A DNA stretch of 64,000 nucleotides from Actinomycetota bacterium (GCA_035490535.1 DATHCP010000087.1:32665-96664), one strand, 5' to 3'. Counted from the stretch's first letter, positions 25,044-49,374 are shown. A program made the numbers and translations. The notes: generated by a model from the sequence alone, not told the origin.

Positions 25044-25100
25044 CGGGCGGATGCTACCGGGGCCGGCGCCGCCGCGTGGTTCGGGCCGCTCGGCGCGTGC

Positions 25101-25106
25101 TAGCGT
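25101..25106 (+). promoter_or_regulatory. candidate -10 box (TAGCGT) for a leaderless transcript
   Basis: Fits TANNNT and ends 7 nt before ATG 25114. No SD sequence. Confidence 0.45.
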
Positions 25107-25113
25107 CGCGCGG

Positions 25114-27384: not shown

Positions 27385-27407
<23 letters not shown>
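26271..27407 (+). CDS. cytoplasmic PAS-domain sensor histidine kinase (HisKA_3/NarL-partner type)
   Basis: GTG 26271 is in a GTGA overlap with the M20 stop. No TM span. PAS: [18 protein letters not shown]...[18 protein letters not shown]-box [18 protein letters not shown]-box [12 protein letters not shown]-box DDGAGF...[14 protein letters not shown]. Confidence 0.8.
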
Positions 27408-28578
<1,171 letters not shown>

Positions 28579-29619
28579 CTACCGCTCCTTCCGTCGGGCG
28601 GCAGTCTCGGCGGACAGCCGCTCGTGGGTCAAGTCTCGCTGCAGGCGCCGGTGCGCGGCCGGCGTGGCGCCGATCCGGTCCAGGCCGATCAGCGCCGCGC
28701 CCAGCACCGGCGGCGCCTGGAGCACGTGGACGCGGGCGGCAGGGGCGACCGCCGCTACGCCGCGCTCGATCCGGTCGTAGAAGGCCCGGTACCGGTTGCG
28801 GAAGATGCCGCCGCCGAGCACCACATCGACATCCAGCTTCGTCATCCGCAGGCGTCGGATCGCCGTGGTCGCCATCGTGACGACCTCGTCCGCCTGCTGC
28901 TCGACGATCGTGTTCGCGACGCGGTCGCCCTCGGCGGCCGCCGCGAACACGATCGGCGCGAGTTCGCTCACACGATCCTCGCCGATCCGGTGGAAGTACA
29001 TCGCCTCCATCACCTGCCGGGGCCGCCGCAGGCCGAAGTAGGCCGGCACCGTGGTGGCCAGCGCCGTACGTTCGCCCCGGCCGTCCTCGGCGCGGATCGC
29101 GTGCCACAGGCCGGCGCCGCCGACCTCGAGCCCGCCGCCCCAGTCGCCGGAGATCGGGCCGACCGCCGGCAGACGGTACGTGCGTCCGTTCGGAGCGACG
29201 GCCGTGCAGTTCGTTCCCTGACCGCACACGATCGCCACGCCCCAGGGCCGGTCGGTGCCGGCGCGCATCACCGCGAACGTGTCGTTGCGCAAGACCTCCT
29301 CGCGTGTCCACCCGTTGCGGCGCAGCCACCGGCTCAGGCGACGGTCGTCGGCCGGCAGATCGGCGCCGGCCAGGCAGAAGACCCCGAGCTCGGCGAACGG
29401 CGGCCGATCCGGATCGAGCCCCGCCGCGCGGATCGCGCGCTCGATCGCGACCCACACCGCGTCGAGGTGGTCCTCGCCGATCCGGTACACGAGGTGCGTG
29501 TCCGAGAATTCGATCGACCCGGCGCGGGCCGCCCCGATGATCGTCCCCGACCGCGACACGAGCACCGCATGGGTCTTCGAGCCGCCGGCGTCGACGGCGA
29601 GCAGCGCGGGGATCCTCAC
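28579..29619 (-). CDS. BadF/BadG/BcrA/BcrD-type ATPase, N-acetylglucosamine-kinase-like sugar kinase
   Basis: GTG 29619 is in a GTGA overlap with the deacetylase stop. Phosphate-1 motif AVDAGGSKTHAVL and CGQGTNC. Its stop abuts the ATPase start. Confidence 0.75.
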   Translation of the reverse strand: MRIPALLAVDAGGSKTHAVLVSRSGTIIGAARAGSIEFSDTHLVYRIGEDHLDAVWVAIERAIRAAGLDPDRPPFAELGVFCLAGADLPADDRRLSRWLRRNGWTREEVLRNDTFAVMRAGTDRPWGVAIVCGQGTNCTAVAPNGRTYRLPAVGPISGDWGGGLEVGGAGLWHAIRAEDGRGERTALATTVPAYFGLRRPRQVMEAMYFHRIGEDRVSELAPIVFAAAAEGDRVANTIVEQQADEVVTMATTAIRRLRMTKLDVDVVLGGGIFRNRYRAFYDRIERGVAAVAPAARVHVLQAPPVLGAALIGLDRIGATPAAHRRLQRDLTHERLSAETAARRKER

Positions 29620-30230
29620 GGCAACGTCTCCAGATCGGCGACCGTCACGAACGTCGCGCCGGCCTCCCGGAGGCCGTCGACGAGCGGGCCGACGGCGTCG
29701 CCGGTCCCCGCCGGCCACGTGTGCAGCAGGACGACCGCGCCGTCGCCGTGCTCGAGCGTTCCACGGAGCCCGTCCGCGGTGATCGCCTCACCGGTCCGGT
29801 GGGCCTCCCAATCCTCGAGCTCGACGTGCCAGCCGACGTCGCGGTAGCCGAGTTCCTCGAGCGCCGCCTGGACGTCGGGGTCGTCGTGCCCGGCGCCGAA
29901 CGGGCAGCGGAACCATGGCCGTGGATCGCGGCCGGTCGCCGCCTCGATCGCGGCCGCTCCGTCGGCCAGGTCCGACGGCACGCCGTTCGGCACGAGCAGC
30001 GGCATCCGGGCGTGGTAGTGCGAGTGGTGTCCGATCAGATGGCCGTCCTCGGCGATCCGCCGGGCGGTCACCGGATAGGCCTCGGCCCACCGGCCCTGGA
30101 CGAAGAACGTCGCGGTCACGCCCCGCCCCGCCAGCGTCTCGACGATCCGCTCGGCGTTCCCCGGCGGACATCCGGGACGGTCGGGATGCTCGGCGTCGAA
30201 CGTCAGCGCGACCCGGAACGGCTCACTCAC
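29616..30230 (-). CDS. polysaccharide/chitooligosaccharide deacetylase, CE4 (NodB) family, cytoplasmic
   Basis: No signal peptide. Motif 1 variant LTFDAEH; motif 2 GHHSHYH; RCPFGAG region. Confidence 0.8.
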   Translation of the reverse strand: MSEPFRVALTFDAEHPDRPGCPPGNAERIVETLAGRGVTATFFVQGRWAEAYPVTARRIAEDGHLIGHHSHYHARMPLLVPNGVPSDLADGAAAIEAATGRDPRPWFRCPFGAGHDDPDVQAALEELGYRDVGWHVELEDWEAHRTGEAITADGLRGTLEHGDGAVVLLHTWPAGTGDAVGPLVDGLREAGATFVTVADLETLP

Positions 30231-31275
30231 GGGTGGTCACCTTCGCGGCGTGGACGTAGGTGCCCGGGTCGCGGCCGGCGAGCGTGGCGAGCCGCCACGC
30301 GAGCAGCTGCACCGGAACGATCGACGCGGCCGGCGCGACGAGCCGGTCCAGATCGCCGATCTCGATCGTTCCCGGCCCTCCGTCGTCGTGCCTCGCGACG
30401 ACGAGCACGCCTGCGCCGAGGGCGCGGAGGTCCGTGGCCAGCCCCAGGTCGAGCTCGGCGGTCTCGGGCTCGGTCGCGATCACGATCGCGGCCAGGGCGG
30501 GGCCGGCCAGCTCCAGCGGGCCGTGCCGGAACTGTGCGGCCTGCAAGGACTCGACGGGGATCCCGACCGCCTCCTTCAGCGTCAGCGCGCCCATCTCGGC
30601 GGCCGCGCGGGCGGCACCTCGACCCAGGATCACGGTCGTCGCGCGGCCGTCGTGCCACGCCGCGAGCCGGTCGGGGAGGCTGCCGTCACCCAGGAGGCTG
30701 CCCACGGCCGTCGCGGCCGCGTTCGCGGCGTCCGCGACGCCGTCCGTCGCGACGCCGCCGATCGCGCGGGCGAGCGCGCCGACCAGGACCAGCGTGGCCA
30801 CGAAGGTCATCGTCGACGGACCGGTCTCCGGCCCGGCCTCGGTATCCAGGGCGACGTCCGCGAGGCCGGCGAGCCGATTGTCCAGGCCGTTCGTCACCGC
30901 GACGATCGTGGGCGCGTCGCCGCGCTCGCGGAGCGAACGGGCGACCGCCACGGTCTCCGCGCTCTCTCCCGACTGGCTCACGAGGATCAGCAGGTCGCCG
31001 GCGCCGAGCGTCGCCAGCCGCATGTGGAGCAGCTCGGCGGCGTCCACCATCAGGGCGGGGATCCCGGCCACCGCCAGGTCGGCGACGGCCGGATAGCACG
31101 CGTCGTAGGAGCTGCCCATCCCCGCGAACGCGAGGGTCCGCCCGCCCGCCGATGCGGCCGCCTCGGCCACCGCGTCGGCCTGCCGGAGCGATGCGGCGCC
31201 GGCCCGCCGGAGGGCGTCGGGCTGGCCGGCGATCTCGGCGATGAATGGGTCAGGAAAGTTTCCTAACGATTTCAC
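30223..31275 (-). CDS. double-SIS-domain sugar isomerase/deaminase (GlmS C-terminal-like; GlcN-6-P deaminase or deglycase type)
   Basis: IAEIAGQPDALRR N-terminus, SIS motif FAGMGSSYDACYP and a second SIS half. The only in-frame start is GTG 31275. It overlaps the next gene by 8 nt. Confidence 0.8.
   Translation of the reverse strand: MKSLGNFPDPFIAEIAGQPDALRRAGAASLRQADAVAEAAASAGGRTLAFAGMGSSYDACYPAVADLAVAGIPALMVDAAELLHMRLATLGAGDLLILVSQSGESAETVAVARSLRERGDAPTIVAVTNGLDNRLAGLADVALDTEAGPETGPSTMTFVATLVLVGALARAIGGVATDGVADAANAAATAVGSLLGDGSLPDRLAAWHDGRATTVILGRGAARAAAEMGALTLKEAVGIPVESLQAAQFRHGPLELAGPALAAIVIATEPETAELDLGLATDLRALGAGVLVVARHDDGGPGTIEIGDLDRLVAPAASIVPVQLLAWRLATLAGRDPGTYVHAAKVTTRE
31252..31264. 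promoter_or_regulatory. 13-bp palindrome AGGAAAGTTTCCT, candidate operator (copy 1)
   Basis: Perfect 6-1-6 inverted repeat in the divergent SIS/GH4 control region. The identical 13-mer recurs at 38358-38370 next to the ROK regulator gene. Read on opposite strands the two copies share GTTAGGAAA-N-TTTCCT. AT-rich 13-mers are rare in this sequence. Confidence 0.55.
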
Positions 31276-31301
31276 CGACCGGAGTGTACGATGCGCCGCG
31301 G

Positions 31302-32570
31302 ATGGGTGTGAAGGTCGCGGTCGTCGGCGGCGGGAGCACGTACACGCCGGAGCTCGTCGAGGGGTTCGTCACCCGGAGCGACCGTCTCCCGGTCGATGCC
31401 CTCGTCCTGCTGGACATCGACCTGGACCGCCTCGGCGTGGTCGGGGGGCTCGCCCAGCGCATGGTCCTGCGCGCCGGGTGGAGCGGCACGGTCGAGCTGA
31501 CCGACGATCCGCGACGCGCGATCGAGGGCGCCGACTTCGTGATCGTCCAGCTGCGGGTCGGCGGGAACCAGGCGCGGTTCCGGGACGAGACGATCCCGCT
31601 GCGGTTCGACTGCATCGGTCAGGAGACGACCGGTCCCGGCGGCTTCGCGAAGGCGCTGCGCACGGTGCCGGTGGTGCTCGAGCTCGCCGAGCTGACCGCC
31701 GAGATCGGCGCGCCCGGGGCGTGGTTCGTCGACTTCACGAACCCGACCGGGCTGGTCACGCAGGCGTTGCTCGACGGGGGCCACCGCGCATGCGGGCTCT
31801 GCAACGTCGCGATCGGCTTCCAGCGCGAGTTCGCCGCGATCTTCGGCGTCGAGCCGTCCCGCGTCACGCTCGACCATGTCGGCCTGAACCACCTGACGTG
31901 GGAGCGCGAGGTCCGGGTCGACGGCGAGGACCGGCTTCCGGCGTTGCTCGCCGATCCGCCCGTCGACGCGTTCGAGGACGCGCCGATCGAGCTGGTTCGG
32001 GCGCTGGGTGCGATCCCGAGCTACTACCTGCACTACTACTACCGGACCCCCGAGGTGCTCGCGCACCAACGGACGCACCGCACGCGTGCCGAGGAGGTGC
32101 TGGAGATCGAGGCGGGCTTGCTGGAGCTGTACCGCGACCCCGCGCTCGACACGAAGCCCAAGCTCCTGGAGGAGCGGGGCGGCGCCTGGTACTCCGACGC
32201 CGCGGCCGCGCTCGTCGCCTCGTTGCACGCCGGGACCGGGGACGAGCAGGTGGTGAACGTCCGCAACCAGGGCGCGATCGCGAACCTGGCCGACGACGAC
32301 GTGGTCGAGGTCCCGTGCCGGGTCGACCGTGAGGGAGCCCATCCGATCCCGACCGCGCCGCTCGCCCCGGAGATGCTCGGGCTGGTCCAGCACGCCAAGG
32401 CCTACGAGCGCCTCACGATCGAGGCCGCCCTCAGCGGCTCGCGCGAGCGCGCGCTCCTCGCGCTGATGACGAACCCGCTCGTCGGCGACCACGATCGGGC
32501 GGCGCCGCTCCTCGACGCGCTGCTCGAGGCGAACCGCGAGCTCCTGCCGCGGTTCTTCCCGTCCGCCTAG
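31302..32570 (+). CDS. glycoside hydrolase family 4 (6-phospho-beta-glucosidase / ChbF-like)
   Basis: NAD-binding N-terminus [22 protein letters not shown]. Metal-site motif CGLCNVAIG and [21 protein letters not shown] (31287-31292) lies 9 nt upstream of the ATG. Confidence 0.85.
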
Positions 32571-33802
32571 ACCTCCGGCAGCTCGTCGGCGTGCCGCTGG
32601 ATCTTCGCGAGCGCCTCCACGGCCTGCTCGACGCCCCGACGGTCGGACCGGAACACGTTCTCGTCCAGGTAGACCGACTCTCGCAGCCCGGCCGCCTCGG
32701 CCACCGGGAACGACATCCGCGCCGGATCCAGCCGATCCGCGTGCTCCACGCACACGGGGAGGCGCGACAGCGCCGGCTGGAACAGGTCGTAGTTCGACAT
32801 CGGCTCGTAGCCGGTCCAGGCGCCGATCCCCTCGGCCTCGAGGGCGTCGCAGACGGCCGCGTTCGTGCGTCCGGCGAAGGCGTCGGGATCGATCGCCACG
32901 ATGTAGCGGTAGAAGCTCCAGCGCGTGATCCGCGGATCGCGCGGCATCAGCCGCACCCCCGGAAGGTCGTCTGCGAGCTCCTCGAAGAGGGAGCCCAACT
33001 CGGCGCGGCTCGCCTGTTGCGCGGGGAACCGGTCCAGCGCGACCTCGAGCAACGCGGCTTGGAGTTCGCCCAGGCGGTAGTTCGCCCCGAAGGTGTACTC
33101 GCGCTCCGCGGCGTCCTTCGGCCGCCCGCAGTCGACGACCGAGTGCGCCAGGCGCGCGAGCCGGTCATCGTTCGTGAGCAGGGAGCCGCCCTCGCCGGCC
33201 GTCATGATCTTCGAGGACTGGTGGCTGAAGGAGCCGAACGCACCGATGCAGCCGGCGCCGACCCCGTTCCACTGCTGGCCGTGCGCGTGCGCGCAGTCCT
33301 CGACGACGGCGAGGTCGTGCGCCTGCGCGATCGCCATCAACGCGTCCATGTCGGCCATCTGATGGCCGAGGTGCACGGGCAAGATCGCCCGCGTCCGGGG
33401 CGTGATCGCCGCCTCGACCTGCGCGGGATCGATCGTCCAGGTCGCGGGCGTCACGTCGACGAACACCGGCAGGGCTCCGGCGGCGATCGGGGCGTACGCC
33501 GTTGCGCTGAACGTCAGCGCCGGCACGATCACCTCGTCCCCCCAGCCGATCCCGAGCGCCTTCAGCGCGACCTCCATCGTCACGGTTCCGTTCGCCATCA
33601 GGACGCCGTGTCGGGCGCCCTGATACGCGGCGAATCGCTCCTCGAAGGCGGCCGCATGCGGGCCCGGCTCGGGGAAGCCTCCCCAGCGGCCGCTGCGGAC
33701 CACGCGTTCGACGGCGAGGACGTCGTCGTCGTTCCCGTTCGGCCAGTCGGGATAGGGCTCGGTTCGGACGGGCGTGCCGCCCGCGATCGCGAGTTCGCTC
33801 AT
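32567..33802 (-). CDS. DegT/DnrJ/EryC1/StrS family PLP-dependent sugar aminotransferase
   Basis: GTVTMEVALKALGIGWGDEVIVPALTFSAT and the PLP-lysine motif FSHQSSKIMTAGEGG. SD GGAAGGAG lies 5 nt before ATG 33802. Confidence 0.85.
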   Translation of the reverse strand: MSELAIAGGTPVRTEPYPDWPNGNDDDVLAVERVVRSGRWGGFPEPGPHAAAFEERFAAYQGARHGVLMANGTVTMEVALKALGIGWGDEVIVPALTFSATAYAPIAAGALPVFVDVTPATWTIDPAQVEAAITPRTRAILPVHLGHQMADMDALMAIAQAHDLAVVEDCAHAHGQQWNGVGAGCIGAFGSFSHQSSKIMTAGEGGSLLTNDDRLARLAHSVVDCGRPKDAAEREYTFGANYRLGELQAALLEVALDRFPAQQASRAELGSLFEELADDLPGVRLMPRDPRITRWSFYRYIVAIDPDAFAGRTNAAVCDALEAEGIGAWTGYEPMSNYDLFQPALSRLPVCVEHADRLDPARMSFPVAEAAGLRESVYLDENVFRSDRRGVEQAVEALAKIQRHADELPEV

Positions 33803-33842
33803 CGTCGGCTCCTTCCGAAGCGGTGGGGTGGATCGGGGTTGG

Positions 33843-33848
33843 TAGGGT
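33843..33848 (+). promoter_or_regulatory. candidate -10 box (TAGGGT) for a leaderless transcript
   Basis: Fits TANNNT and ends 7 nt before ATG 33856. No SD. Confidence 0.45.
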
Positions 33849-33855
33849 CGCGCAG

Positions 33856-35160
33856 ATGGACGCGCCGCGCATCTGCATCGTCGGCGGCGGCTCCGCGTAC
33901 ATGCCCGGCATCGCGTTCGCGGTGGCGCACGCCCGCGACGCGCTGGCCGGAGCGACGCTCGTGCTGCACGACGTCGACGCCGACGCGCTCGAGCTGCAGG
34001 CGCGGCTCACCCGGTCGATCCTGCGCGCGCGCGGCGCAGGCGACATCGGGGTGGAGGCCACGCTCGAGCGCCGGCGCGCGATCGCCGGCGCCGACCTGAT
34101 CCTGACGGCGTTCCGTCCCGGCGGGTTCGCGGCGCGGCACCTGGACGAGCGGATCGCGATCGACCACGGGGTGATCGGCCAGGAGACGGCCGGGCCGGGC
34201 GGGTTCGCGATGGCGTTGCGCTCGGTACCGATCGTGCGGGAGATCGCCTCGGAGGTGCGAGCGGAGGCGGCATCCGAGGCGGTCCTGCTGAACTACACGA
34301 ACCCGATCGAGATCGTCTCCGAGGCGATGACCCGGTGGGGGCCGCCCGTGCCGTTCCTCGGGCTGTGCGACCAGACCGCGGGCGAGGAGGCGTTCCTCGG
34401 CCGCCTGCTCGCCGTCGATCCGGTCCGGATCGAGCTCGACACGGCTGGCGTGAACCACATGACGTTCACCCGGGCGGTGCGGATCGACGGCCTCGACCGG
34501 ACGCCCGCCGTCTGGGAGCGGCTCGACACGGTTACGCCCGCGGAGGTCGCCGACCGCGGTTGGTGGCGGGTCGTCGTGCTGTTCCGCGAGCTCCGGGTCG
34601 TTCCGAGCCTCTACCTGCAGTACTTCCGGTTCACGGACGAGGTCCTTGCCGAGCAGCGGGCGGCGGGGCGTACGCGTGCCGAGGAGGTGATGGCGCAGCT
34701 CCCGGAAGTCGTCGCGAGCTATCGGCGGGAGGCGGACGCGGCCGATCCGCGTCCGTCGATGGCGCGGGCGAGTGAGGAGCACGGCGACTTCGCCGTCGCG
34801 ATCATGGCCGCGATCCGCTCCGGAGCGCGCCACCGCGCGATCCTCAACCTCCCGAACCGCGGCCAGGTCCCCGACCTCCCGGAGGGTGCCATCGTCGAGA
34901 CCCCCGCGTGGGTGCAGGGGCGCTCGGTGGAGCCGATCGATCAGGCGGCGTTGCCGGAGCCGGTGCACGACGTCGTGACCCGGGTCGCCGAGCACGCCCG
35001 GCTGGCCGCCGAAGCCGCCCTCACCGGCGACCATGCGCTCGCGATCGATGCGCTCGAGGCGCATCCGCTGGTTCCCTCCCGCGCGGTGGCCGCTCAGCTC
35101 CTCGACGCGTACCTCCGCGCTCATGCCGCGTTCCTCCCCGCCATCTGGGGCGCGGCGTGA
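33856..35160 (+). CDS. glycoside hydrolase family 4, second divergent copy
   Basis: MDAPRICIVGGGSAYMPGIAF, GQETAGPGGFAMALR and the GLCDQTA metal-site variant. Confidence 0.8.
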   Translation: MDAPRICIVGGGSAYMPGIAFAVAHARDALAGATLVLHDVDADALELQARLTRSILRARGAGDIGVEATLERRRAIAGADLILTAFRPGGFAARHLDERIAIDHGVIGQETAGPGGFAMALRSVPIVREIASEVRAEAASEAVLLNYTNPIEIVSEAMTRWGPPVPFLGLCDQTAGEEAFLGRLLAVDPVRIELDTAGVNHMTFTRAVRIDGLDRTPAVWERLDTVTPAEVADRGWWRVVVLFRELRVVPSLYLQYFRFTDEVLAEQRAAGRTRAEEVMAQLPEVVASYRREADAADPRPSMARASEEHGDFAVAIMAAIRSGARHRAILNLPNRGQVPDLPEGAIVETPAWVQGRSVEPIDQAALPEPVHDVVTRVAEHARLAAEAALTGDHALAIDALEAHPLVPSRAVAAQLLDAYLRAHAAFLPAIWGAA

Positions 35161-36413
35161 ACGGCGGGCCGCTGGATCTTTCGGAGGCCCTCGCCACGCC
35201 GATCGACGGACGCACGACCGGGTTCCCGCCGGCGGCGGCCACCACGGTCGAGGAGGTCGCGGCCCAGGGCTGGACGCTCGACGACCTGGCGCCGCCGATC
35301 CTGCTGTTGCGCCGATCGGCGGTCGAGCACAACGTCCGCGTGATGGCCGAGTACCGCGCCGCGCACGGCGTCGAGCTCTACCCCCACGCGAAGACGTCGA
35401 TGGCCCCGCAGCTGTGGGCGCGCCAGCTGGTGGCCGGCGCGGCCGGCATGACGGCGGCCACCGGCCAGCAGGTCCGCGCGCTGCGCGCCGTCGGTGTCCG
35501 CCGCGTGCTGCTGGCGAACCAGCTCGTCGACGCCCCGACGATCGCGTGGCTCGCGGAGGCGCTCGGCGATCCCTCCTTCGAGCCGGCGTGCTGGGTCGAC
35601 TCCGTCGCCGGGGTCGACCTGCTCGCGCGCGGGCTGCAGGCAGCGGGCGCGCCGCGTGCCCTGGACGTGCTGGTCGAGCTCGGGCACACGGATGGGCGCA
35701 CCGGCTGCCGCACGGTGGAGGACGCACGGACGGTGGCGGCGGCGACGGCATCGTCGCGCGCCCTGTCGCTGGCGGGCGTCGCGGGTTACGAGGGGACGCT
35801 CGCCGACGACCGCTCGCCGGCATCCTTGGGGGCCGTGGATGGGTTCCTCGACTCGATGCGGGTTTTGACCGAACGGTTGCTCGCAGACGGCGCAGGCGAG
35901 GACGGGTTCCTGGTCACCGCCGGCGGGAGCGCGTTCTTCGATCGAGTGATCGAACGCCTCGGCGGGGGATGGCGCGCGGGCTCCGACGTCCGGATCGCGC
36001 TCCGCTGCGGCTGCACGATCACGCACGATCATGGGGTGTACGCTCGTTCGTCGCCGATCGCCGAGGGGTTGCGCGCCGCGTTCGAAGCGTGGGGACCGGT
36101 GCTGTCGCGGCCGGAGCCCGGAACCCTGGTCGTCGGCCTCGGCCGCCGGGATGTGCCGGCCGACCGCGATCCGCCGGTCCCGCTGCGGGCGCGGAGCGGA
36201 GGTGCCGCCGTGTCCCTCGACGGGAGCCTGCGCGTCGTCCGCGTGATGGACCAGCACACGATCTGCCGGATGGATCCCGCGATGGCGCTCGGCCCCGGCG
36301 ACCGGGTCGCCTTCGGCATCTCGCATCCGTGCTCGGCGTTCGATCGACGTCGCGTGATCCCGATGCTCGACGACGACGATCGCGTCGTGGACGCGATCGT
36401 CACCTGGTTCTGA
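35157..36413 (+). CDS. DSD1-family PLP enzyme (alanine-racemase-fold D-serine/D-hydroxyamino-acid dehydratase-like)
   Basis: GTG 35157 is in a GTGA overlap. LLLRRSAVEHNVRVMAEY...LYPHAKTSMAPQL (PLP lysine in HAKT). The C-terminal HPCSAFD segment is typical of the D-serine dehydratase-like domain. Confidence 0.75.
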   Translation: MNGGPLDLSEALATPIDGRTTGFPPAAATTVEEVAAQGWTLDDLAPPILLLRRSAVEHNVRVMAEYRAAHGVELYPHAKTSMAPQLWARQLVAGAAGMTAATGQQVRALRAVGVRRVLLANQLVDAPTIAWLAEALGDPSFEPACWVDSVAGVDLLARGLQAAGAPRALDVLVELGHTDGRTGCRTVEDARTVAAATASSRALSLAGVAGYEGTLADDRSPASLGAVDGFLDSMRVLTERLLADGAGEDGFLVTAGGSAFFDRVIERLGGGWRAGSDVRIALRCGCTITHDHGVYARSSPIAEGLRAAFEAWGPVLSRPEPGTLVVGLGRRDVPADRDPPVPLRARSGGAAVSLDGSLRVVRVMDQHTICRMDPAMALGPGDRVAFGISHPCSAFDRRRVIPMLDDDDRVVDAIVTWF

Positions 36414-36415
36414 AC

Positions 36416-36796
36416 TCACGTCGGCAGCACCGCCACCGCCTCGATCTCCACGAGCAGTCCGGCGGCCAGTCCGACCTCGACCGTCGACCGGGCGGGTCGC
36501 GGCTCGGCGAAGTGCCCCGCGTATTCCTCGTTGAACGCGGCGAAGTCGCCCAGGTCGGCGAGGAACGCCGTCACCTTGACGACGTCGTCCATCGTGGCGC
36601 CGGCGGCTTCCAGGCACGCCCGCAGGTTGGTGAGCACCTGCCGGGTCTGCTCCGCGATGCCGCCGGGTACGATCCGGCCGCTCGCGTCCAGGGCCACCTG
36701 CCCGGAGATGAACGCGAGCCCGGCGCCGACGACGACGGGACTGTAGGGGGACGTCGGACGGGGGAGCCCCTCGGGTTGGCGCGCGTCTCGGGTCAT
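36416..36796 (-). CDS. ridA: RidA family enamine/imine deaminase
   Basis: ATG 36796 is in an ATGA overlap with the kdgK stop. PYSPVVVGAGLAFISGQVALD...TRQVLTNLRACLEAAG...VEIEAVAV is the classic YjgF/RidA pattern. Confidence 0.85.
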   Translation of the reverse strand: MTRDARQPEGLPRPTSPYSPVVVGAGLAFISGQVALDASGRIVPGGIAEQTRQVLTNLRACLEAAGATMDDVVKVTAFLADLGDFAAFNEEYAGHFAEPRPARSTVEVGLAAGLLVEIEAVAVLPT

Positions 36797-37695
36797 CCTC
36801 GCTCCTCCTGGTTGGGATCGGGTGGGTCGGTGTCGCCGAAGGTTTCGGCCGCCCGGGCACCGGCGGCGATCGCGAGCTCGAGCGCGTCGGGGACGGCCGC
36901 GCCGGCAAGGCGGGCCTCGAGGTAGCCGGCGTTGAACGCGTCGCCGGCGCCGACCGGATCGCGTTCGTCGATCGGCGCGGCCGCGCGCTCGTGCCATGCT
37001 CCGTCCGGGTCGAGCGCGGCGGCGCCGTCGGCGCCCCGCGTGAGCACGACCTCGCCGGCGCCGGCGGCCGCGCACCGCTCGGCCAGCGCCGGGCCGGAGC
37101 CGCCGAACAGGGTCGCGAGCTCGTCCTCACCGCCGAGCACGACGTCGCAACGCGCCAGGAGCGGCTCGAGCAGCTCCGCCGCTCGCGCAGATCCCCACAG
37201 GCCCGGACGCAGGTTCGGGTCGATCACGCGGAGGCCCTGCGCGAGGTCGAGCAATGCGACCGCGGCCCGGTGGGGGCCGGGGCCCAGCATCGCCGTGATG
37301 CCCGTGACCAGGACCGCGCGCGCCTCCGCGACCGGCGCGCCCTCCAGGTCCGCCGGCTCGAGCGCGCTCGCGGCCGATCCGGCCCGCCAGTAGCGCACGC
37401 CGCCCTCGGTGTCGCGCAGCATCAGGCCGGTCGGGCGGTCCGGGTCCACATGGACCCAGCGGAGATCGACGCCGGCCGCCGCGAGCGCTCCGCGGATCCG
37501 TCGACCCGCCTCGTCGGCGCCCAGCCGGCTGATCCACGCGGTGCGAGCTCCGCGCCGGGCCAACGCGACGCACGTGTTGCTCTCCGCGCCGCCGATCGTC
37601 GCGGCGAACGTCTCCGCGTCGGCGAGGGTGCCGTCGACGGCGACCAGCGACAGCATCGTCTCGCCGAGCGCGATCAGATCGAACCGCTCGGTCAT
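36793..37695 (-). CDS. kdgK: 2-dehydro-3-deoxygluconokinase-like PfkB sugar kinase
   Basis: ATG 37695 is in an ATGA overlap with the eda stop. MTERFDLIALGETMLSL, GGAESNTCVALAR and DPVGAGDAFNAGYL PfkB signatures. Confidence 0.8.
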   Translation of the reverse strand: MTERFDLIALGETMLSLVAVDGTLADAETFAATIGGAESNTCVALARRGARTAWISRLGADEAGRRIRGALAAAGVDLRWVHVDPDRPTGLMLRDTEGGVRYWRAGSAASALEPADLEGAPVAEARAVLVTGITAMLGPGPHRAAVALLDLAQGLRVIDPNLRPGLWGSARAAELLEPLLARCDVVLGGEDELATLFGGSGPALAERCAAAGAGEVVLTRGADGAAALDPDGAWHERAAAPIDERDPVGAGDAFNAGYLEARLAGAAVPDALELAIAAGARAAETFGDTDPPDPNQEERG

Positions 37696-38351
37696 CCGCG
37701 GGTCGCCGCGACGGCCTCGCGCGCCCGGTCCCGCAGCGCGGTCATGCCGAGATCGTCGGCGGGCGGGACCGCCCCGACCAGGCTCGAGCCGAGGCCGACC
37801 GCGGTCGCCCCCGCCGCGAGGTAGCCGCGGACGTCCGCGATCGCGATCCCGCCGGTCGGCACGATCGGCACGTCGGGGTACGGCCCACGGAGCGTCCGGA
37901 CGTACGCCGGTCCGACGGCGGCCGCGGGGAACAGCTTCACGGCACGCGCCCCGGCCTCGAGCGCCCGCGCCAGTTCGCCCGGGGTCAGGACGCCGGGGAA
38001 CGCGTCGATCCCGCGCGCGGTCGCGGCGTCGACGACGGCCGGCACGAGGTGGGGGGAAGCGACGAACCGGGCGCCGGCGTCGGCCGCCGCGCCCACCTGA
38101 TCGGCGGACAGGACCGTGCCGGCGCCGACCAGGTCGCCGCGCTCCGCCGCACGAGCGATCGCGTCCAGCGCGCCGGGCGTGTCGAGCGTGATCTCGAGCG
38201 CGGGGACACCGGCGTCGGCCAGCGCGCCCAGCACCCGGTCGAGCCCGTCGGCCGTCCGGTAGCGCACCACGGCGATCAGCCGTCCGACGTCCTCGCGGAT
38301 CACCTCGGTCGCCTTGACTCCCGCACCGGCCGGAGCGTAGCATCCGCCCAA
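37692..38351 (-). CDS. eda: KDPG / KHG aldolase
   Basis: EITLDTPGA, GAGTVLS, the Schiff-base lysine in AVKLFPAA and PTGGI. The listed TTG 38351 start is doubtful. GTG 38303 (MIREDVGRLIAVVRY) is more likely because a plus-strand promoter occupies 38314-38343. Confidence 0.85.
   Translation of the reverse strand: MGGCYAPAGAGVKATEVIREDVGRLIAVVRYRTADGLDRVLGALADAGVPALEITLDTPGALDAIARAAERGDLVGAGTVLSADQVGAAADAGARFVASPHLVPAVVDAATARGIDAFPGVLTPGELARALEAGARAVKLFPAAAVGPAYVRTLRGPYPDVPIVPTGGIAIADVRGYLAAGATAVGLGSSLVGAVPPADDLGMTALRDRAREAVAATRG
38314..38343 (+). promoter_or_regulatory. candidate promoter of the ROK regulator gene
   Basis: TTGACT (38314-38319), 18-nt spacer, TAGCAT (38338-38343). The predicted start site is near 38350, so the palindrome at 38358-38370 lies just downstream. 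Confidence 0.45.
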
Positions 38352-38357
38352 TTAGTT

Positions 38358-38370
38358 AGGAAAGTTTCCT
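38358..38370. promoter_or_regulatory. 13-bp palindrome AGGAAAGTTTCCT, candidate operator (copy 2)
   Basis: Identical to 31252-31264. It lies between eda and the ROK regulator gene, immediately downstream of the predicted regulator promoter. Confidence 0.55.
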
Positions 38371-38375
38371 TTGAG

Positions 38376-39584
38376 CTGAGGGGAACGACCACGGTCCTCG
38401 ATCGGACGTCGCGTGCGGGGACGCCCAGCCTCCTGCGGGCGATCAACGAGCGGACCGTTCTGGACTGCGTGCGGCGGCAGGGCCCGATCTCTCGCGCGCA
38501 ACTCGCTCGCGAAACCGCGCTCTCGAAGCCCACGGTCTCGCAGGCCCTCGCCGGGCTCCAGCAGGCGGGACTGGTGCGCGAGGCCGGCCGCTCCCGCGGG
38601 GGCAAGGGCCCGACCGCGATCCTGTACCAGCTGAATCCCCGCGCCGGCTGGGTGGTCGGCATCGACGTCGGCCGCAAATGGCTCCGCGCGGCGATCGCCG
38701 ACGTCACCGGCGAGTTCGTGGCGCGCCGCGACGAGCGCGCCCGCGTGCGCAGCGCCTCCACGCTGATCGCGCAGATCGGCGCGATCGCGCACGGCCTGGC
38801 CTCCGACGCCGGCATCCGCTGGGGGCAGGTCACGTTCGCCGCGGTCGGGAGCCCCGGCGTGTACGAGCCCGGACGTGGCGAGGTCGCGCTCGCGTACAGC
38901 CTGCCGGGCTGGGGCCGGCACGGCCTGGTGGAGCTGGTTCAGCGCGAGCTCGGCACGAAGACCGAGTTCGAGAACGACGTGAACCTCGCAGCACTCGGTG
39001 AGCGGTGGCATGGGCTGGGCAAGGACGTCGGCGACTTCGTGTACCTGCACCTGGGCACGGGCGTCGGGCTCGGCATCGTGGTGAACGGCCAGCTCTACCG
39101 GGGCTCGAGCGGCGCGGCCGGCGAGGTCGGCTACCTGCCCCTGTGGAAGACCGACGTGCGCGACCCCGAGGGGCGCCGGCGGGGGCCGCTGGACGCCGCG
39201 GCGAGCGCCAGCGGGGTGGTCGAGGCCGCGCGCCGGGCCGGGATGACCGGGCCGCTCACCGCCGAGCGTGTGTTCGCGGCGGCGACGCGGGGAGACCGGA
39301 GGGCCGCAAGGGTGGTGGCGCAGGAGGCGGAGCGGATCGCCCTGGCGATCGCTGCGGTCTCGGCGGTCCTCGATCCGGAGCTCGTGATCCTGGGCGGCGG
39401 CATCGGCAGCAACCGCGAGCTGTTGCTGGAACCGGTGCGCAGCAAGCTGGACGGGATCTCCCCATTCCGGCCCCGGGTCGAGGTCTCGGTCCTCGGGCAC
39501 GAGGCCACGCTCTACGGCTCGGTCTCGATGGCCCTGCGGTCCGCCCACGACCAGCTGTTCGACCGCGGGATGGCTTCGGCATGA
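38376..39584 (+). CDS. ROK family transcriptional repressor (NagC/Mlc-like)
   Basis: N-terminal winged HTH SLLRAINERTVLDCVRRQGPISRAQLARETALSKPTVSQALAGLQQAGLV. ROK body GLGIVVNGQLYRGSSGAAGEVGYL, with no Cys-rich zinc motif visible. The start codon is unresolved (CTG 38376 or ACG 38391); see findings. Confidence 0.8.
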   Translation: MRGTTTVLDRTSRAGTPSLLRAINERTVLDCVRRQGPISRAQLARETALSKPTVSQALAGLQQAGLVREAGRSRGGKGPTAILYQLNPRAGWVVGIDVGRKWLRAAIADVTGEFVARRDERARVRSASTLIAQIGAIAHGLASDAGIRWGQVTFAAVGSPGVYEPGRGEVALAYSLPGWGRHGLVELVQRELGTKTEFENDVNLAALGERWHGLGKDVGDFVYLHLGTGVGLGIVVNGQLYRGSSGAAGEVGYLPLWKTDVRDPEGRRRGPLDAAASASGVVEAARRAGMTGPLTAERVFAAATRGDRRAARVVAQEAERIALAIAAVSAVLDPELVILGGGIGSNRELLLEPVRSKLDGISPFRPRVEVSVLGHEATLYGSVSMALRSAHDQLFDRGMASA

Positions 39585-39660
39585 GCTTCCGAGCCCGACC
39601 CGCACGTATATCCGGGAAGCGAACGACGACCCGGGCGTTGCCCGGAGAGGAGGCAACGGG

Positions 39661-41034
39661 ATGAAGCGATGGTCGGTGATGCTCCTCAGCCTGGGGCTGT
39701 TCGCCGCGGCGTGTTCGGGCGGCGGCGCCAGCAGTGGCATCCAGACGGTGAACCCGAGCGCGTCGCACGAGCCCGTGACGCTCACGATGTGGAGCGAGTG
39801 GACCTCCAAGGCCGAGACGAACGTCTTCAACAAGATCTTCGCCGGCTTCGAGAAGCAGTACCCCTGGATCACGGTCGACTCCAAGACCGGGCTGACGGAC
39901 CAGAAGATCATCGCCGCGATCAACGCGGGCGACGCGCCCGATGCGGTGCTCTCGTTCGGGGTGGACAACGTGGGCAAGTTCTGTCAGTCCGGCGCGTGGA
40001 TCGACATGAACCCGTACATCAAGGACCCGAACGTCGGGATCGACATGAGCAGCACGTTCCCGCCGACGGCCCTGACCTACACGAGCTACAACGGGATCCA
40101 GTGCTCGCTGCCGTTCCTCACCGACGTGACCGCCATGTACTACAACCTGGACATGTTCAAGGCCGCCGGCATCAGCGGCCCGCCGAAGACGACGGACGAG
40201 CTGATGGCCGATGCGAAGAGGCTGACGAAGTTCAACCCCGACGGTTCGATCAAGGTTGCCGGCTTCGTGCCCTGGATCGGCTACAACTGCTGCGGCAACA
40301 CGACGCTGAGCTTCGGACACATGTTCGGCGCGAAGTGGCTGGACGCCGACGGGAAGCCGGCCTTCGCGACCGACCCGGCGTGGGCCGAGATGCTCACGTG
40401 GCAGAAGCAGTTCATCGCCGAGGTGTACGGCAACGGGGACTTCCAGACGGGGTCGGACCGGCTCCAGCGGTTCGTCGCCGGGACGGCCGACGAGTTCTCG
40501 CCGGCGAACGACTTCGAGATCGGACGGGTCGCGATCGACCTCGACGGCGAGTGGCGCGCAGGCCCCAACTTCATCCAGGCCGAGGCGCCGAACCTGAACT
40601 ACGACACCGCGCCGATGCCGACCTCCCCCGGGACCACCGACACGTACGGCTCCGGCATCGCCGGCGGCACGATCATCGGGATCCCGCGGGGCTCGAAACA
40701 CGAGGCCGAGGCGTGGCTGCTGATGAAGTACATGGCCACGGACACGCCAACCCTCGTGTACATGGCGAACAACGCCTACAACGTTCCGACGACGAACGCG
40801 TCGTTGAACTCCCCGGATCTGAAGTTCGTCCCGCAGTTCCAGGTCTTCCTGGACGCGTTCGCGAACCCGCATTCGGAGTATCGTCCGACCACGCCGATCG
40901 GTGACGGGTTGGGCACGTACATCGACCAGTTCTCCCAGGCGTGGCAGGCTGGCAAGACCACGGATCTCCAGGGCGGCCTCCAGACGGCGGCCGACCGCAC
41001 GGAGACCGACCTGCAGCAGGCGCAGGCGCCATAG
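39661..41034 (+). CDS. sugar ABC transporter substrate-binding lipoprotein (family 1)
   Basis: SD GGAGAGGAGG. MKRWSVMLLSLGLFAAA|CSGG lipobox. Typical SBP_bac_1 length and composition. Confidence 0.9.
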   Translation: MKRWSVMLLSLGLFAAACSGGGASSGIQTVNPSASHEPVTLTMWSEWTSKAETNVFNKIFAGFEKQYPWITVDSKTGLTDQKIIAAINAGDAPDAVLSFGVDNVGKFCQSGAWIDMNPYIKDPNVGIDMSSTFPPTALTYTSYNGIQCSLPFLTDVTAMYYNLDMFKAAGISGPPKTTDELMADAKRLTKFNPDGSIKVAGFVPWIGYNCCGNTTLSFGHMFGAKWLDADGKPAFATDPAWAEMLTWQKQFIAEVYGNGDFQTGSDRLQRFVAGTADEFSPANDFEIGRVAIDLDGEWRAGPNFIQAEAPNLNYDTAPMPTSPGTTDTYGSGIAGGTIIGIPRGSKHEAEAWLLMKYMATDTPTLVYMANNAYNVPTTNASLNSPDLKFVPQFQVFLDAFANPHSEYRPTTPIGDGLGTYIDQFSQAWQAGKTTDLQGGLQTAADRTETDLQQAQAP

Positions 41035-41045
41035 GAGGAGGGGCG

Positions 41046-42044
41046 ATCGTCGCCACCGCGGCTTCGACGGGACCGACGACGGGCCGGACGACCCCGGTCC
41101 GTCGTCGGACGCCCGCCGCGCGTCGGAGGACCCGCCGGAACTACCTGCGGGTCGCGTTGTTCATGTCGCCGTGGCTGATCGGCTTCTTCGTCTTCACGCT
41201 GTATCCGATCCTCGCGAGCTTCTACTACTCGCTCACGCACTTCGACCTGCTGTCGCATCCGATCTTCAACGGCCTCGCGAACTACCGGTTCATGTTCACG
41301 AAGGACCCGTTCTTCTGGCAGGCGATCCGCAACACGCTGTGGATCATCATCTTCGGGGTGCCGCTGCGGATCGCGTTCGCGGTCGGCACCGCCTGGCTGC
41401 TGGTGAAGCCGCGTCGAGGGATCCGCGTGTACCGAACGATCTTCTTCCTGCCGACGCTCGCGCCGGCGGTCGCCGCGGCGCTCGCCTTCGTGTTCATCTT
41501 CAATCCGGCGTTCGGGCCGGTGAACCAGATCCTGTCGCATCTGGGCGTCAAGAACACGCCGCTGTGGTTCCAGAGTCCCACGTGGTCGAAGCCGGGCCTC
41601 CTGATCCTCGGCCTCTGGGGCGTCGGCGACGCGATGATCATCTTCCTCGCCGGCATGCTGAACGTGCCGCGCCAGCTCTACGAGGCCGCCGACATCGAGG
41701 GCGCATCGGGCTGGCAGAAGTTCCGGCACGTCACGCTGCCGTTGATCAGCCCGGTGATCTTCTTCTCCCTCGTGATCGGCATCATCGAGGGCTTCCAGTT
41801 CTTCACCGAGGCCTACGTCACGAACATCACGCTGAACAACGGCGACGTGAACGGCCTCGGCGATCCGCTGGGCTCGCTGCTGTTCTATACGACCCGCCTG
41901 TACCAGGCCGGCTGGATCAACTTCCAGATGGGCTACGCGTCGGCGCTCGCCTGGGTCCTCCTGGTGATCACGATGATCTGCACGCTCGCCGTGATGAAGT
42001 CCTCGGGACGCTGGGTCTTCTACCAGGGAGGTGAGTTCAAGTAG
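41046..42044 (+). CDS. sugar ABC transporter permease (MalF/UgpA-like)
   Basis: RRNYLRVALFMSPWLIGFFVFTLYPILASFYYSLT N-terminal pattern and an EAA-loop region (YEAADIEGASGWQKFRHVTLPLISP). The start is assigned to ATC 41046 behind AGGAGGAGGGG; see findings. Confidence 0.8.
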   Translation: MVATAASTGPTTGRTTPVRRRTPAARRRTRRNYLRVALFMSPWLIGFFVFTLYPILASFYYSLTHFDLLSHPIFNGLANYRFMFTKDPFFWQAIRNTLWIIIFGVPLRIAFAVGTAWLLVKPRRGIRVYRTIFFLPTLAPAVAAALAFVFIFNPAFGPVNQILSHLGVKNTPLWFQSPTWSKPGLLILGLWGVGDAMIIFLAGMLNVPRQLYEAADIEGASGWQKFRHVTLPLISPVIFFSLVIGIIEGFQFFTEAYVTNITLNNGDVNGLGDPLGSLLFYTTRLYQAGWINFQMGYASALAWVLLVITMICTLAVMKSSGRWVFYQGGEFK

Positions 42045-42109
42045 CCGTCCCCCGCCCCGTCGGTCATCCGGGCGGCGCCGAGGTCCTCAAAGGCGTCGCG
42101 ATCGGGAAC

Positions 42110-42973
42110 ATGGGCGCGCTCTCCGCCCGCCCGGTGCCGCCGCACGAGAAGCGCCGGCGGCTGCTGAGCGCCTTCGCGAACCACACGATCTTGATCGTGC
42201 TGTCGGCGATGTTCTTCCTGCCCTTGCTGTTCGTGCTGCTGACCGCGGTGATGCCGGACTCGCAGGCGAACACCCCGGCGATGTGGCCCCACCAGTGGAT
42301 CTGGTCGAACTACACCAGCGTCTTCAGCGCGATCCCGTTCTTCCGCTACACGTTCAACACGCTGACGATCGCCTTCCTGTCGACCGTCGGCACGGTGCTC
42401 TCCTGCATCCCGGTCGCCTACGCGCTGGCACGGATGCGCTGGCGGGGCCGGCAGGTCGCGTTCGTCGTGATCCTCTCGACCCTGATGCTGCCCTACCAGG
42501 TCACGGTGCTGCCCCTGTACGTGATCTTCGTGCGACTGCACTGGATCCCGTCGCTGAAGCCGCTGATCATCCCGAGCTTCTTCGGCGACGCGTTCTCGAT
42601 CTTCCTGCTCCGACAGTTCTTCATGACGATCCCGGAAGAGCTCGCCGACGCCGCGCGCGTGGACGGCGCGAGCGATTGGCAGATCATGACCCGGGTGATC
42701 GTGCCGCTCGCGAAGCCCGCGATCGCCGCGGTCGCGCTGTTCAACTTCCTCTACAACTGGAACGACTTCTTCGGCCCCCTGCTGTACGTGGGCGAGGATC
42801 CCAATCGCTGGACGCTCGCGATCGGCCTGTCGGAGTTCAAGGCGCTGCACCACGTCCAGTGGAACCTCACGATGGCGGCCTCCGTCCTGTTCATGCTGCC
42901 CATCATCGTGTTGTTCTTCCTGGCGCAACGTGTCTTCGTCGAGGGCATCACGCTGTCGGGCGTGAAGGGCTAG
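42110..42973 (+). CDS. sugar ABC transporter permease (MalG/UgpE-like)
   Basis: Six hydrophobic spans. EAA loop ELADAARVDGASDWQIMTRVIVPLAKPA. Confidence 0.85.
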   Translation: MGALSARPVPPHEKRRRLLSAFANHTILIVLSAMFFLPLLFVLLTAVMPDSQANTPAMWPHQWIWSNYTSVFSAIPFFRYTFNTLTIAFLSTVGTVLSCIPVAYALARMRWRGRQVAFVVILSTLMLPYQVTVLPLYVIFVRLHWIPSLKPLIIPSFFGDAFSIFLLRQFFMTIPEELADAARVDGASDWQIMTRVIVPLAKPAIAAVALFNFLYNWNDFFGPLLYVGEDPNRWTLAIGLSEFKALHHVQWNLTMAASVLFMLPIIVLFFLAQRVFVEGITLSGVKG

Positions 42974-43013
42974 GCTCCGCGCCCGGGACGGACCCGGAGG
43001 GACGGCGACACGG

Positions 43014-49350: not shown

Positions 49351-49374
49351 GGAGCCCCTCTCCGGTTCGGACAG

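Follow-up and report, generated by a model that had tools for sequence, protein, structure and literature searches.

What does a pyridoxal 5′-phosphate (PLP) enzyme do when its gene stands opposite an operon for the breakdown of 2-keto-3-deoxygluconate (KDG)? This question is raised by a stretch of 64,000 nucleotides from an Actinomycetota bacterium (GCA_035490535.1, DATHCP010000087.1:32665-96664), here called the window and numbered from its first letter, in which a deaminase resembling the enzyme OngC is encoded at 35157-36413. The reading favoured here, and considered rather probable, is that the enzyme is an OngC-type D-glucosaminate ammonia-lyase which feeds a KDG branch inside an island of chitosan-oligosaccharide genes. 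The island, about 17.6 kb long (27385-44956), would itself probably serve the uptake and catabolism of glucosamine oligosaccharides derived from chitosan.

Soil and peat hold major pools of carbon and nitrogen in the form of chitin and chitosan. The fate of glucosamine (GlcN) in actinomycetes after its uptake by CsnEFG has been called "largely unknown" (bioRxiv 10.1101/2023.09.20.558697), and the only characterised route via unphosphorylated glucosaminate (GlcN1A) is the proteobacterial ong pathway for chitin oxidised by lytic polysaccharide monooxygenases (LPMOs). The initial annotation of the window had presented a D-serine dehydratase-type enzyme in this role as a distinct solution beside the DgaE lyase of Salmonella. 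An enzyme of this kind, OngC, was already published in 2022 (PMC9537276), and the enzyme chemistry itself is not new. What is new is the context, namely, an OngC-type branch without the D-aminoacylase OngB, tied to a chitosan island of uncultured peat Actinomycetota that is apparently controlled by a CsnR-type repressor and based on hydrolases of glycoside hydrolase family 4 (GH4). The interpretation first given thus stands in part: its pathway logic and the conservation of the genes hold, its novelty does not, and it had been drawn up without the GH4 coupling, the CsnR boxes, the chitosan island, and the second BadF kinase.

The Deaminase and Its Convergent Operon

Genes were called from a frame plot of third-position GC (GC3), followed by Pfam and NCBIfam scans; the window has 72% G+C. 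Four genes form the core of the locus:

35157-36413, plus strand: OngC-like fold-type-III PLP deaminase of 418 amino acids, predicted D-glucosaminate ammonia-lyase yielding KDG (Pfam and PDB matches)
36416-36796, minus strand: RidA, enamine/imine deaminase, last gene of its operon (Pfam 1.2e-34; TIGR00004 score 110.2, cut-off 106.25)
36793-37695, minus strand: KdgK, 2-keto-3-deoxygluconate kinase of the PfkB family (Pfam PfkB 3.8e-47)
37692-38351, minus strand: Eda, aldolase for 2-keto-3-deoxy-6-phosphogluconate (KDPG) and 2-keto-4-hydroxyglutarate (Pfam Aldolase 4.6e-44; TIGR01182 score 171.7, cut-off 156.05)

The positions of these genes and the ATGA linkage of eda, kdgK, and ridA, both claimed at the outset, are borne out by the GC3 plot, the domain scans, and the sequence. 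Stop and start codons overlap at 37692-37695 (eda/kdgK) and at 36793-36796 (kdgK/ridA), and eda begins at TTG 38351 or GTG 38303. The deaminase gene starts with a GTG that overlaps, as GTGA, the stop of the upstream GH4 gene at 33823-35160, and it is convergent with the operon, the two stops lying 2 bp apart (36413 and 36416).

The Pfam domain D-ser_dehydrat (PF14031) is found in the deaminase at 1.1e-11, and for the identical protein P0001 both Ala_racemase_N (PF01168) and PF14031 are precomputed. The best PDB match, 3GWQ ("D-serine deaminase"), covers the full length (residues 20-418) with E 9.5e-67 and about 39% identity, and thereby settles the fold. This Burkholderia protein, the closest solved structure, has the same motifs, and its function is given as uncharacterised in the entry name. 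Invariant in an alignment of 33 family members are PH(A/G)KT with K79, YEG, DQH (365-367), and SHPC (389-392). Within the last motif, H390-P-C392 (H-x-C) is presumably equivalent to the zinc site of eukaryotic-type D-serine dehydratases (chicken DSD) and of D-threo-3-hydroxyaspartate dehydratase.

The initial assignment to the family of these dehydratases can be retained as far as the fold type III, the PLP lysine, and the H-x-C motif are concerned. Indeed, Dsd1p, chicken DSD, and D-threo-3-hydroxyaspartate dehydratase have in common with the window enzyme the fold, the two-domain architecture, the PLP lysine, and the C-terminal H390/C392 pair, but the relationship is a distant one. D-threo-3-hydroxyaspartate dehydratase matches with E 1e-6 over residues 42-226 only, that is, the N-terminal half; D-threonine aldolases match better (1e-20); and no dehydratase of the Dsd1p/chicken type is present among the 8 PDB matches at E <= 0.01. 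Judged by its sequence, the enzyme is a member of the 3GWQ/OngC-like "amino acid deaminase" subfamily.

The partner genes are consistent with a KDG-forming reaction. In RidA, the arginine of the motif PARSTVEV is taken by us to be the residue essential for imine hydrolysis in Salmonella RidA. For KdgK, the best NCBIfam models are kinases of KDG and 2-keto-3-deoxygalactonate (KDGal), with scores below their cut-offs; the closest named structure is the Thermus KDG kinase 1V19 (E 1e-34), 1WYE and 4E69 match as well, and the unnamed PfkB entry 4DU5 scores slightly ahead of 1V19 (2e-37).

The surroundings of the gene were compared in ten island-type loci: the window, L005/L007, L008, L006, L020, L009, L019, L010, and the contigs P0020 and P0007. 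The convergent partner of the deaminase gene was distributed as follows:

ridA-kdgK-eda: 4 of 10 loci
kdgK-eda: 3 of 10 loci
ridA alone: 3 of 10 loci
anything else: 0 of 10 loci

Homologues in ong Clusters

OngC of Pseudoalteromonas prydzensis ACAM 620 is a fold-type-III PLP "D-amino acid deaminase" which converts GlcN1A to KDG and NH3 in vitro (Jiang 2022, PMC9537276). So far this conversion has been demonstrated for P. prydzensis OngC alone. The RidA protein of that pathway, OngD, is essential in vivo, KdgK phosphorylates KDG, and phosphorylated N-acetylglucosaminate (GlcNAc1A) is not processed by the Ong enzymes (PMC9537276). The sequence of elimination, RidA, KDG, KdgK, and Eda that was originally proposed for the window is sound in its chemistry.

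A tblastn search of plasmid and chromid records with the window deaminase gave 320 homologues. The ong clusters in PLSDB records of Pseudoalteromonas sp. CF6-2, Vibrio THAF191d, and Ralstonia were used as proxies for P. prydzensis OngC. CF6-2 reproduces exactly the gene order published for the ong cluster, namely, TonB receptor, deaminase, MurR/RpiR, D-aminoacylase, RidA, SSS symporter, sugar kinase, and GH20, and the deaminase encoded there shares 33% identity with the window protein across 404 amino acids (E 9e-69). Clusters of the ong type, with an OngB-like amidohydrolase, RidA, a kinase, and Eda, are present in Vibrio, Ralstonia, Cupriavidus, Tsukamurella, and Arthrobacter, and partially in Nonomuraea. 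By tblastn or alignment, the identity of the window protein to their deaminases is about 32-33% (Vibrio), 39-41% (Ralstonia), 38-39% (Cupriavidus), and 42-43% (Tsukamurella and, equally, Arthrobacter). Ralstonia clusters of this layout are named ong clusters by the authors of the 2022 work themselves, and the supplement text of that work, as far as read, contains no actinobacterial ong cluster. Cultured actinomycetes with ong-type clusters are Tsukamurella (L002), Arthrobacter (L015), and Nonomuraea (L014), the actinomycete plan being RidA, IclR, and kinase, with deaminase, D-aminoacylase, Eda, and GntP running divergently.

The check on neighbourhood conservation suggested by the initial annotation turned out in its favour. 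A deaminase homologue accompanied by RidA, a KDG-type kinase, and Eda occurs in six ong-type clusters from three bacterial classes, and all ten island loci have ridA and/or kdgK-eda beside the deaminase gene. RidA is in fact present in every annotated homologue context examined, including those of Pantoea, Klebsiella, Agrobacterium, and Rhizobium, where it stands with amino-acid or sugar transporters of the ATP-binding cassette (ABC) type. In a neighbour-joining tree, the window protein groups with its metagenomic relatives in a clade of their own. This clade branches among the ong-context lineages, where enterobacterial proteins from amino-acid-ABC contexts branch too, and 3GWQ groups with the ong-cluster enzymes of Ralstonia and Cupriavidus. 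A search for fitness or GapMind evidence on glucosaminate lyases found nothing in the literature collection consulted. The nearest genomes, in a scan with this single protein that gave two loci only, are two uncultured Actinomycetota metagenome-assembled genomes, and the DNA runs containing the deaminase gene are all peat metagenomes.

CsnR Boxes and the ROK Regulator

CsnR is a repressor of the ROK family which binds the operator AGGAAANTTTCCT, controls the Streptomyces chitosanase genes and csnREFGHK, and responds to the inducer (GlcN)2 (PMC6097792; bioRxiv 10.1101/2023.09.20.558697). In the csnREFGHK cluster, genes for an importer of GlcN oligomers of the ABC type stand together with those for CsnH, a GH4 enzyme, and CsnK, a kinase (same sources). 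The published box consensus served as the proxy for CsnR, and the window contains the following features:

31252-31264, no strand: CsnR box 1, AGGAAAGTTTCCT, in the divergent control region of the SIS and GH4a genes
38358-38370, no strand: CsnR box 2, AGGAAAGTTTCCT, with the eda-kdgK-ridA operon on one side and the ROK gene on the other
38376-39584, plus strand: CsnR-like repressor of the ROK family (Pfam ROK 2.1e-42; N-terminal winged helix-turn-helix models)

Two perfect boxes in the window, each an exact match to the consensus, compare with 0.01 expected. Both are kept in position, with 0-1 mismatch, in L005, L006, L008, L009, L019, and L020, and the ong-type loci are without them. Because box 2 sits between eda and the ROK gene, this putative operator probably allows the KDG operon to be repressed together with the transporter operon that begins with the ROK gene.

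The start of the ROK gene is unusual in that no ATG, GTG, or TTG is found from the box to the helix-turn-helix; CTG 38376 or the far-upstream GTG 38049 would serve, and in related contigs gene callers extend the ROK reading frame over the CsnR box. The first eight codons of the SIS reading frame, in which GTG 31275 is the sole start upstream of the conserved IAEIAGQP, contain box 1. The probable start of GH4a follows 38 bp after the box, which makes for an extremely compact divergent control region.

The Probable Chitosan Island and Its Conservation

The remaining genes of the island are as follows:

27385-28578, minus strand: MsiK/MalK-like ABC ATPase, whose gene closes the SIS-CE4-kinase-ATPase operon (Pfam ABC_tran 3.7e-34, OB_MalK)
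28579-29787, minus strand: BadF/BcrAD-type sugar kinase resembling kinases of GlcN and N-acetylglucosamine (GlcNAc) (Pfam BcrAD_BadFG 2.5e-25)
29616-30236, minus strand: CE4 carbohydrate de-N-acetylase (Pfam Polysacc_deac_1 1.7e-24)
30223-31275, minus strand: double-SIS protein, predicted deaminase/isomerase of glucosamine 6-phosphate (GlcN-6-P) (Pfam SIS 2.9e-34, 2 stretches)
31302-32570, plus strand: GH4a, CsnH/ChbF-like GH4 enzyme of the 6-phospho-beta-glucosidase type (Pfam Glyco_hydro_4, Glyco_hydro_4C)
32567-33802, minus strand: PLP aminotransferase of the DegT/DnrJ/EryC1 family (Pfam 2.8e-88)
33823-35160, plus strand: GH4b, second GH4 glycosidase (Pfam GH4, GH4C; PDB 5C3M 3.5e-69)
39661-41034, plus strand: ABC solute-binding protein in a CsnE-like position (Pfam SBP_bac_1 5.9e-30; weak NgcE match)
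40941-42973, plus strand: two ABC permeases at about 41066-42044 and about 42110-42973, starts approximate (Pfam BPD_transp_1 9.4e-14 and 3.1e-19)
43014-43958, plus strand: Gfo/Idh/MocA NAD(P) oxidoreductase, candidate GlcN 1-dehydrogenase (Pfam)
43955-44956, plus strand: second BadF-type sugar kinase in a CsnK-like position, a 333-amino-acid open frame beginning VSVALGVDGGGRKT, GTGA-coupled to the Gfo gene

The plan common to the island loci consists of a leftward operon (ATPase, BadF kinase, CE4, and SIS), the rightward GH4a, the leftward DegT, the rightward deaminase with or without GH4b, the leftward subset of ridA, kdgK, and eda, and a last rightward operon with ROK, solute-binding protein, two permeases, Gfo, and the second BadF kinase. 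Gfo is present in 7 of the 8 loci readable at that position, and DegT in 8 of 10, where it is in most cases the divergent neighbour of the deaminase gene. An inserted GH4b, separating the deaminase from DegT, is confined to the window and to L005/L007/L008, its closest relatives; the other loci have the deaminase directly after DegT or GH4a. The minimal island, L009, comprises GH4a-deaminase, ridA, CE4, SIS, kinase, and ABC genes, without DegT.

By their nearest structures and homologues, the SIS, CE4, GH4, and kinase genes fit a glucosamine substrate. The SIS protein matches the isomerase domain of GlmS (1.7e-24) and the "glucosamine-6-phosphate deaminase" 8EOL (6.6e-13); the CE4 protein is closest to the chitin/xylan deacetylases 7Y51 and 7FBW and to PdaA; and the first BadF kinase, whose true start is probably near 29620, is closest to 8ZO3, a kinase of N-acetylmuramic acid and GlcNAc (E 1.7e-19). 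GH4a, whose reading frame opens at 31245 and whose likely start is ATG 31302, matches the 6-phospho-beta-glucosidases 5C3M and 1S6Y (E about 1e-106) and is 44-46% identical to annotated CelF-type enzymes. GH4b, with a likely start at ATG 33856, is about 35% identical to GH4a, and both are presumed to act on phosphorylated substrates. In Nonomuraea gerenzanensis (L018, 5.44 Mb region), a GH4a homologue of 56% identity has a ROK gene with a one-mismatch CsnR box ahead of it and a BadF-type kinase gene behind it; this resembles a compact csnR...HK arrangement and speaks for GH4a as the equivalent of CsnH.

The MsiK-like ATPase is 73-89% identical across related island loci, and the L005 orthologue of the second BadF kinase carries the Pfam domain BcrAD_BadFG. 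The Gfo/Idh/MocA gene, already reported at 43014-43958, is confirmed by Pfam, and the structures nearest to its product are those of 1,5-anhydro-D-fructose reductase, DgpA, and aldose-aldose oxidoreductase. For DegT, the nearest are L-glutamine:2-deoxy-scyllo-inosose aminotransferases (E 7e-65). Scavenging of mycothiol or aminoglycosides, prompted by an IolG-like match of Gfo and by this inosose-aminotransferase likeness, was dropped after the CsnR boxes were found.

The solute-binding protein is of low GC, and it is 46-47% identical to its orthologues in L005, L008, and L009 and 61% to that in L006. The transporter cassette as a whole (39661-42973) has 65-69% GC, against the window mean, and a codon-position-1 GC of 0.54-0.59; it is 46-62% identical to the L005/L008 orthologues, whereas the flanking island genes reach 75-94%. 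Because of this low GC and low identity, the cassette looks like a replacement through recombination or horizontal gene transfer, and the imported substrate has possibly changed with it.

A Proposed Route for Chitosan-Derived Glucosamine

In the proposed route, oligomers derived from chitosan would be imported by the ABC system with its MsiK-like ATPase, under the control of the CsnR-type repressor, and the CE4 enzyme would strip residual acetyl groups. The BadF-type kinase may phosphorylate the oligomers and the ChbF/CsnH-like GH4s cleave them, after which GlcN-6-P would be converted to fructose-6-P by the SIS deaminase. Unphosphorylated GlcN would, most likely, be oxidised at C1 by the Gfo/Idh/MocA enzyme to the glucosaminate used by the deaminase. 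There, the substrate would displace K79 from PLP to form an external aldimine, the C2 proton would be abstracted, and the 3-OH eliminated. Hydrolysis of the released enamine/imine, accelerated by RidA, would give KDG and NH3; KdgK would then phosphorylate KDG to KDPG, and Eda would split KDPG into pyruvate and glyceraldehyde-3-P.

The origin of the glucosaminate, which is presumed to lie in the oxidation of GlcN by Gfo or in oligomers already oxidised before uptake, is the weakest step. A similar oxidation has been predicted, not shown, for haloarchaea (PMC12343721). In its fullest form, the route would be branched: GH4 would split 6′-phospho-(GlcN)2; GlcN-6-P would leave via SIS; free GlcN would pass via Gfo and the OngC-like enzyme with RidA into a semi-phosphorylative branch of the Entner-Doudoroff (ED) type under CsnR; and a third route, in which nitrogen is removed from GlcN by transamination, might be provided by DegT together with the anhydrofructose-reductase-like Gfo. 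This complete scheme is put forward tentatively, as a possibility that probably does not hold in every part. No such route has been described in actinomycetes; if it exists, the CsnR regulon would extend past uptake and hydrolysis, and part of the gap in Streptomyces GlcN metabolism would be filled.

More generally, if the favoured reading is true, uncultured peat Actinomycetota would send part of the GlcN of chitosan through an ED-type branch without prior phosphorylation, and the OngC-type family would gain a second physiological context, without OngB. In practice, a large family that now bears the labels "alanine racemase" or "D-serine deaminase" could be annotated better, and candidates would be at hand for the enzymatic conversion of glucosaminate to KDG.

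Alternative Explanations

A number of observations weigh against the favoured reading, and part of them concern the substrate. OngC deaminates D-Ser and D-Thr as well (PMC9537276). Relatives in amino-acid-ABC contexts (Pantoea, Klebsiella) are 38-43% identical to the window deaminase, equal to the ong-cluster enzymes. The columns invariant in ong enzymes are kept at 68 of 74 positions in the window protein and at 61-65 of 74 in the amino-acid-context relatives, a contrast too small to discriminate between them; the latter differ from both the ong and the window groups at Q90 and L231 alone. Since identity to the ong enzymes is 33-43%, amino-acid-context relatives are equally similar, and OngC itself also takes these D-amino acids, sequence alone leaves the substrate unfixed; we infer both the substrate of this particular deaminase and the role of RidA. 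Other points concern the surroundings. No CsnR box with two or fewer mismatches precedes the GH4b-deaminase operon; kdgK-eda is missing at the site from the closest relatives (L005/L007/L008, deaminase 66-68% identical) and from L009, which also lacks Gfo; the conserved DegT fits nowhere in the model, and we know of no role of a DegT-type aminotransferase in the catabolism of glucosamine or glucosaminate. No OngB-type D-aminoacylase is found in the 64-kb window by tblastn with the Ralstonia and Tsukamurella OngB (E <= 1e-3), no lactonase is evident in the window, and none of the RNA runs searched contains the deaminase gene. One relative, L011, stands in an unrelated context beside genes of the peptidoglycan type (YkuD, M15).

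This last relative would suit a general D-Ser/D-Thr dehydratase which, together with RidA, serves detoxification or nitrogen scavenging and has come to lie near kdgK-eda and the chitosan genes by coincidence. The names "D-serine deaminase" and "D-serine dehydratase" given to relatives in databases point in the same direction, as do the D-Ser and D-Thr activity of OngC and the relatives in Pantoea, Klebsiella, and Agrobacterium that accompany amino-acid ABC transporters and RidA. Coincidence, however, is hard to reconcile with an island position kept in ten loci, always by ridA and/or kdgK-eda, or with L009, where GH4a and the deaminase form one operon preceded by a CsnR box. The island is without an amino-acid transporter, and the window clade falls among the ong-context lineages in the neighbour-joining tree, so that this explanation is considered improbable. 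A different amino-sugar derivative as substrate is held to be about equally improbable, be it D-galactosaminate or D-mannosaminate, glucosaminate-6-phosphate (giving KDPG directly, as with DgaE), or GlcN itself, with Gfo oxidising the 3-deoxy-osone afterwards. The resemblance of KdgK to bifunctional KDG/KDGal kinases, the lack of kdgK in some island variants, and the two sugar kinases of the island would agree with one or another of these substrates. Nevertheless, the retention of kdgK in 7 of the 10 island loci points to a 2-keto-3-deoxy acid without phosphate as the product; unphosphorylated GlcN1A is what the characterised relative works on, and the Ong enzymes leave phosphorylated GlcNAc1A alone (PMC9537276); and elimination on free GlcN would yield a reactive dicarbonyl.

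The alternative that bears most directly on the weakest step is that the glucosaminate arrives pre-formed. Chito-oligosaccharides oxidised at C1 outside the cell, by LPMOs or oligosaccharide oxidases, would be imported, CE4 would deacetylate them in place of OngB, and GH4 would release a GlcN1A aglycone to the co-transcribed deaminase, while Gfo and DegT would serve otherwise. The island would then be the actinobacterial counterpart of the ong pathway. The coupling of GH4 and deaminase, by GTGA in the window and with GH4a immediately upstream in L009, would find a ready explanation here, as would L009 itself, which has the pathway genes without Gfo or DegT. For the deaminase family, moreover, no biological source of GlcN1A other than oxidised chitin has been established by experiment (PMC9537276), and ong-type clusters occur in the cultured actinomycetes Tsukamurella and Arthrobacter. 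Against these points stand the CsnR boxes, which mark chitosan genes and whose known inducer is the unoxidised (GlcN)2 (PMC6097792). Among the open reading frames scanned, which covered the 64 kb partly, there is no CsnR-boxed LPMO, chitinase, or oxidase, and both the action of GH4 on an aldonic-acid aglycone and that of CE4 on GlcNAc1A are undocumented. A supply of pre-oxidised oligomers is regarded as fairly unlikely, though a good deal less so than the two explanations weighed above, and oxidation of GlcN by Gfo is retained tentatively in the favoured reading.

Comparison with Known Systems

With the ong cluster of P. prydzensis, the island shares the fold-type-III PLP deaminase, the linked RidA, the PfkB kinase, and, presumably, the absence of phosphorylation before deamination. 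The OngB D-aminoacylase, the MurR/RpiR regulator OngR, the TonB receptor, the SSS symporter, and GH20 are without counterpart; instead, the island has the CsnR-type ROK protein with its boxes, the ABC importer, the GH4s, CE4, the SIS deaminase, DegT, and Gfo. A tblastn search of the 64-kb window with the Ralstonia MurR (E <= 1e-3) gave no such regulator. Further differences are the inclusion of eda in the same operon, a host that is an uncultured peat actinomycete instead of a proteobacterium, and the position of the window clade as a separate branch of the family tree.

The csnREFGHK cluster of Streptomyces lividans/coelicolor (Dubeau 2011 and Viens 2015, as cited in PMC6097792) has in common with the island the exact CsnR-box consensus upstream of the ROK gene, the order of ROK, solute-binding protein, and two permeases, and a GH4 hydrolase, a sugar kinase, and an MsiK-like ATPase. 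In the island, by contrast, GH4 is duplicated and placed outside the transporter operon, in separate divergent units, and the permeases are followed by Gfo and a BadF-type kinase, Gfo being inserted before the kinase. CE4, SIS, DegT, the OngC-like deaminase, RidA, KdgK, and Eda are additional, none of them being described for the Streptomyces cluster in the texts consulted.

The chb operon of E. coli resembles the island in combining a deacetylase (ChbG) with a ChbF/CelF-like GH4 acting on a disaccharide of the chitobiose type. It differs in that the island imports by an ABC system and not by a phosphotransferase system (PTS), and its deacetylase is of the CE4 and not the YdjC type. Because of this mode of import, the 6-phosphate would have to come from a cytoplasmic kinase. 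No PTS component is found among the scanned island genes.

In the Dga pathway of Salmonella, uptake occurs by a PTS, KdgK and RidA are not known to be needed, and DgaE is not known as a fold-type-III enzyme, whereas the window deaminase belongs to that fold type. The two routes nevertheless have in common a PLP-dependent alpha,beta-elimination on glucosaminate followed by an ED-type aldolase (DgaABCD, DgaE, DgaF; PMC9529869). The substrate of DgaE is glucosaminate-6-phosphate, from which KDPG arises directly (PMC9529869).

Genes Outside the Island

Some genes of the window lie close to the island. An M20 peptidase gene (24775-26274) adjoins it and is kept there in relatives. About 5 kb upstream, at 20611-22593, a GH9 gene with a CelD_N domain is present, without a preceding CsnR box; exo-beta-glucosaminidases occur within GH9. 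About 3 kb past the island, an FAD oxidoreductase of the GMC family is encoded on the minus strand (47872-49419), and it could be an alternative candidate for the oxidation of the sugar at C1. Farther downstream, a surface-glycan biosynthesis cluster (55721-63234) contains a member of the UDP-glucose dehydrogenase family, a Polysacc_synt_2 dehydratase, a second Gfo/Idh/MocA protein, a GT1 glycosyltransferase, and a second DegT aminotransferase, and this cluster appears unrelated to the catabolic island.

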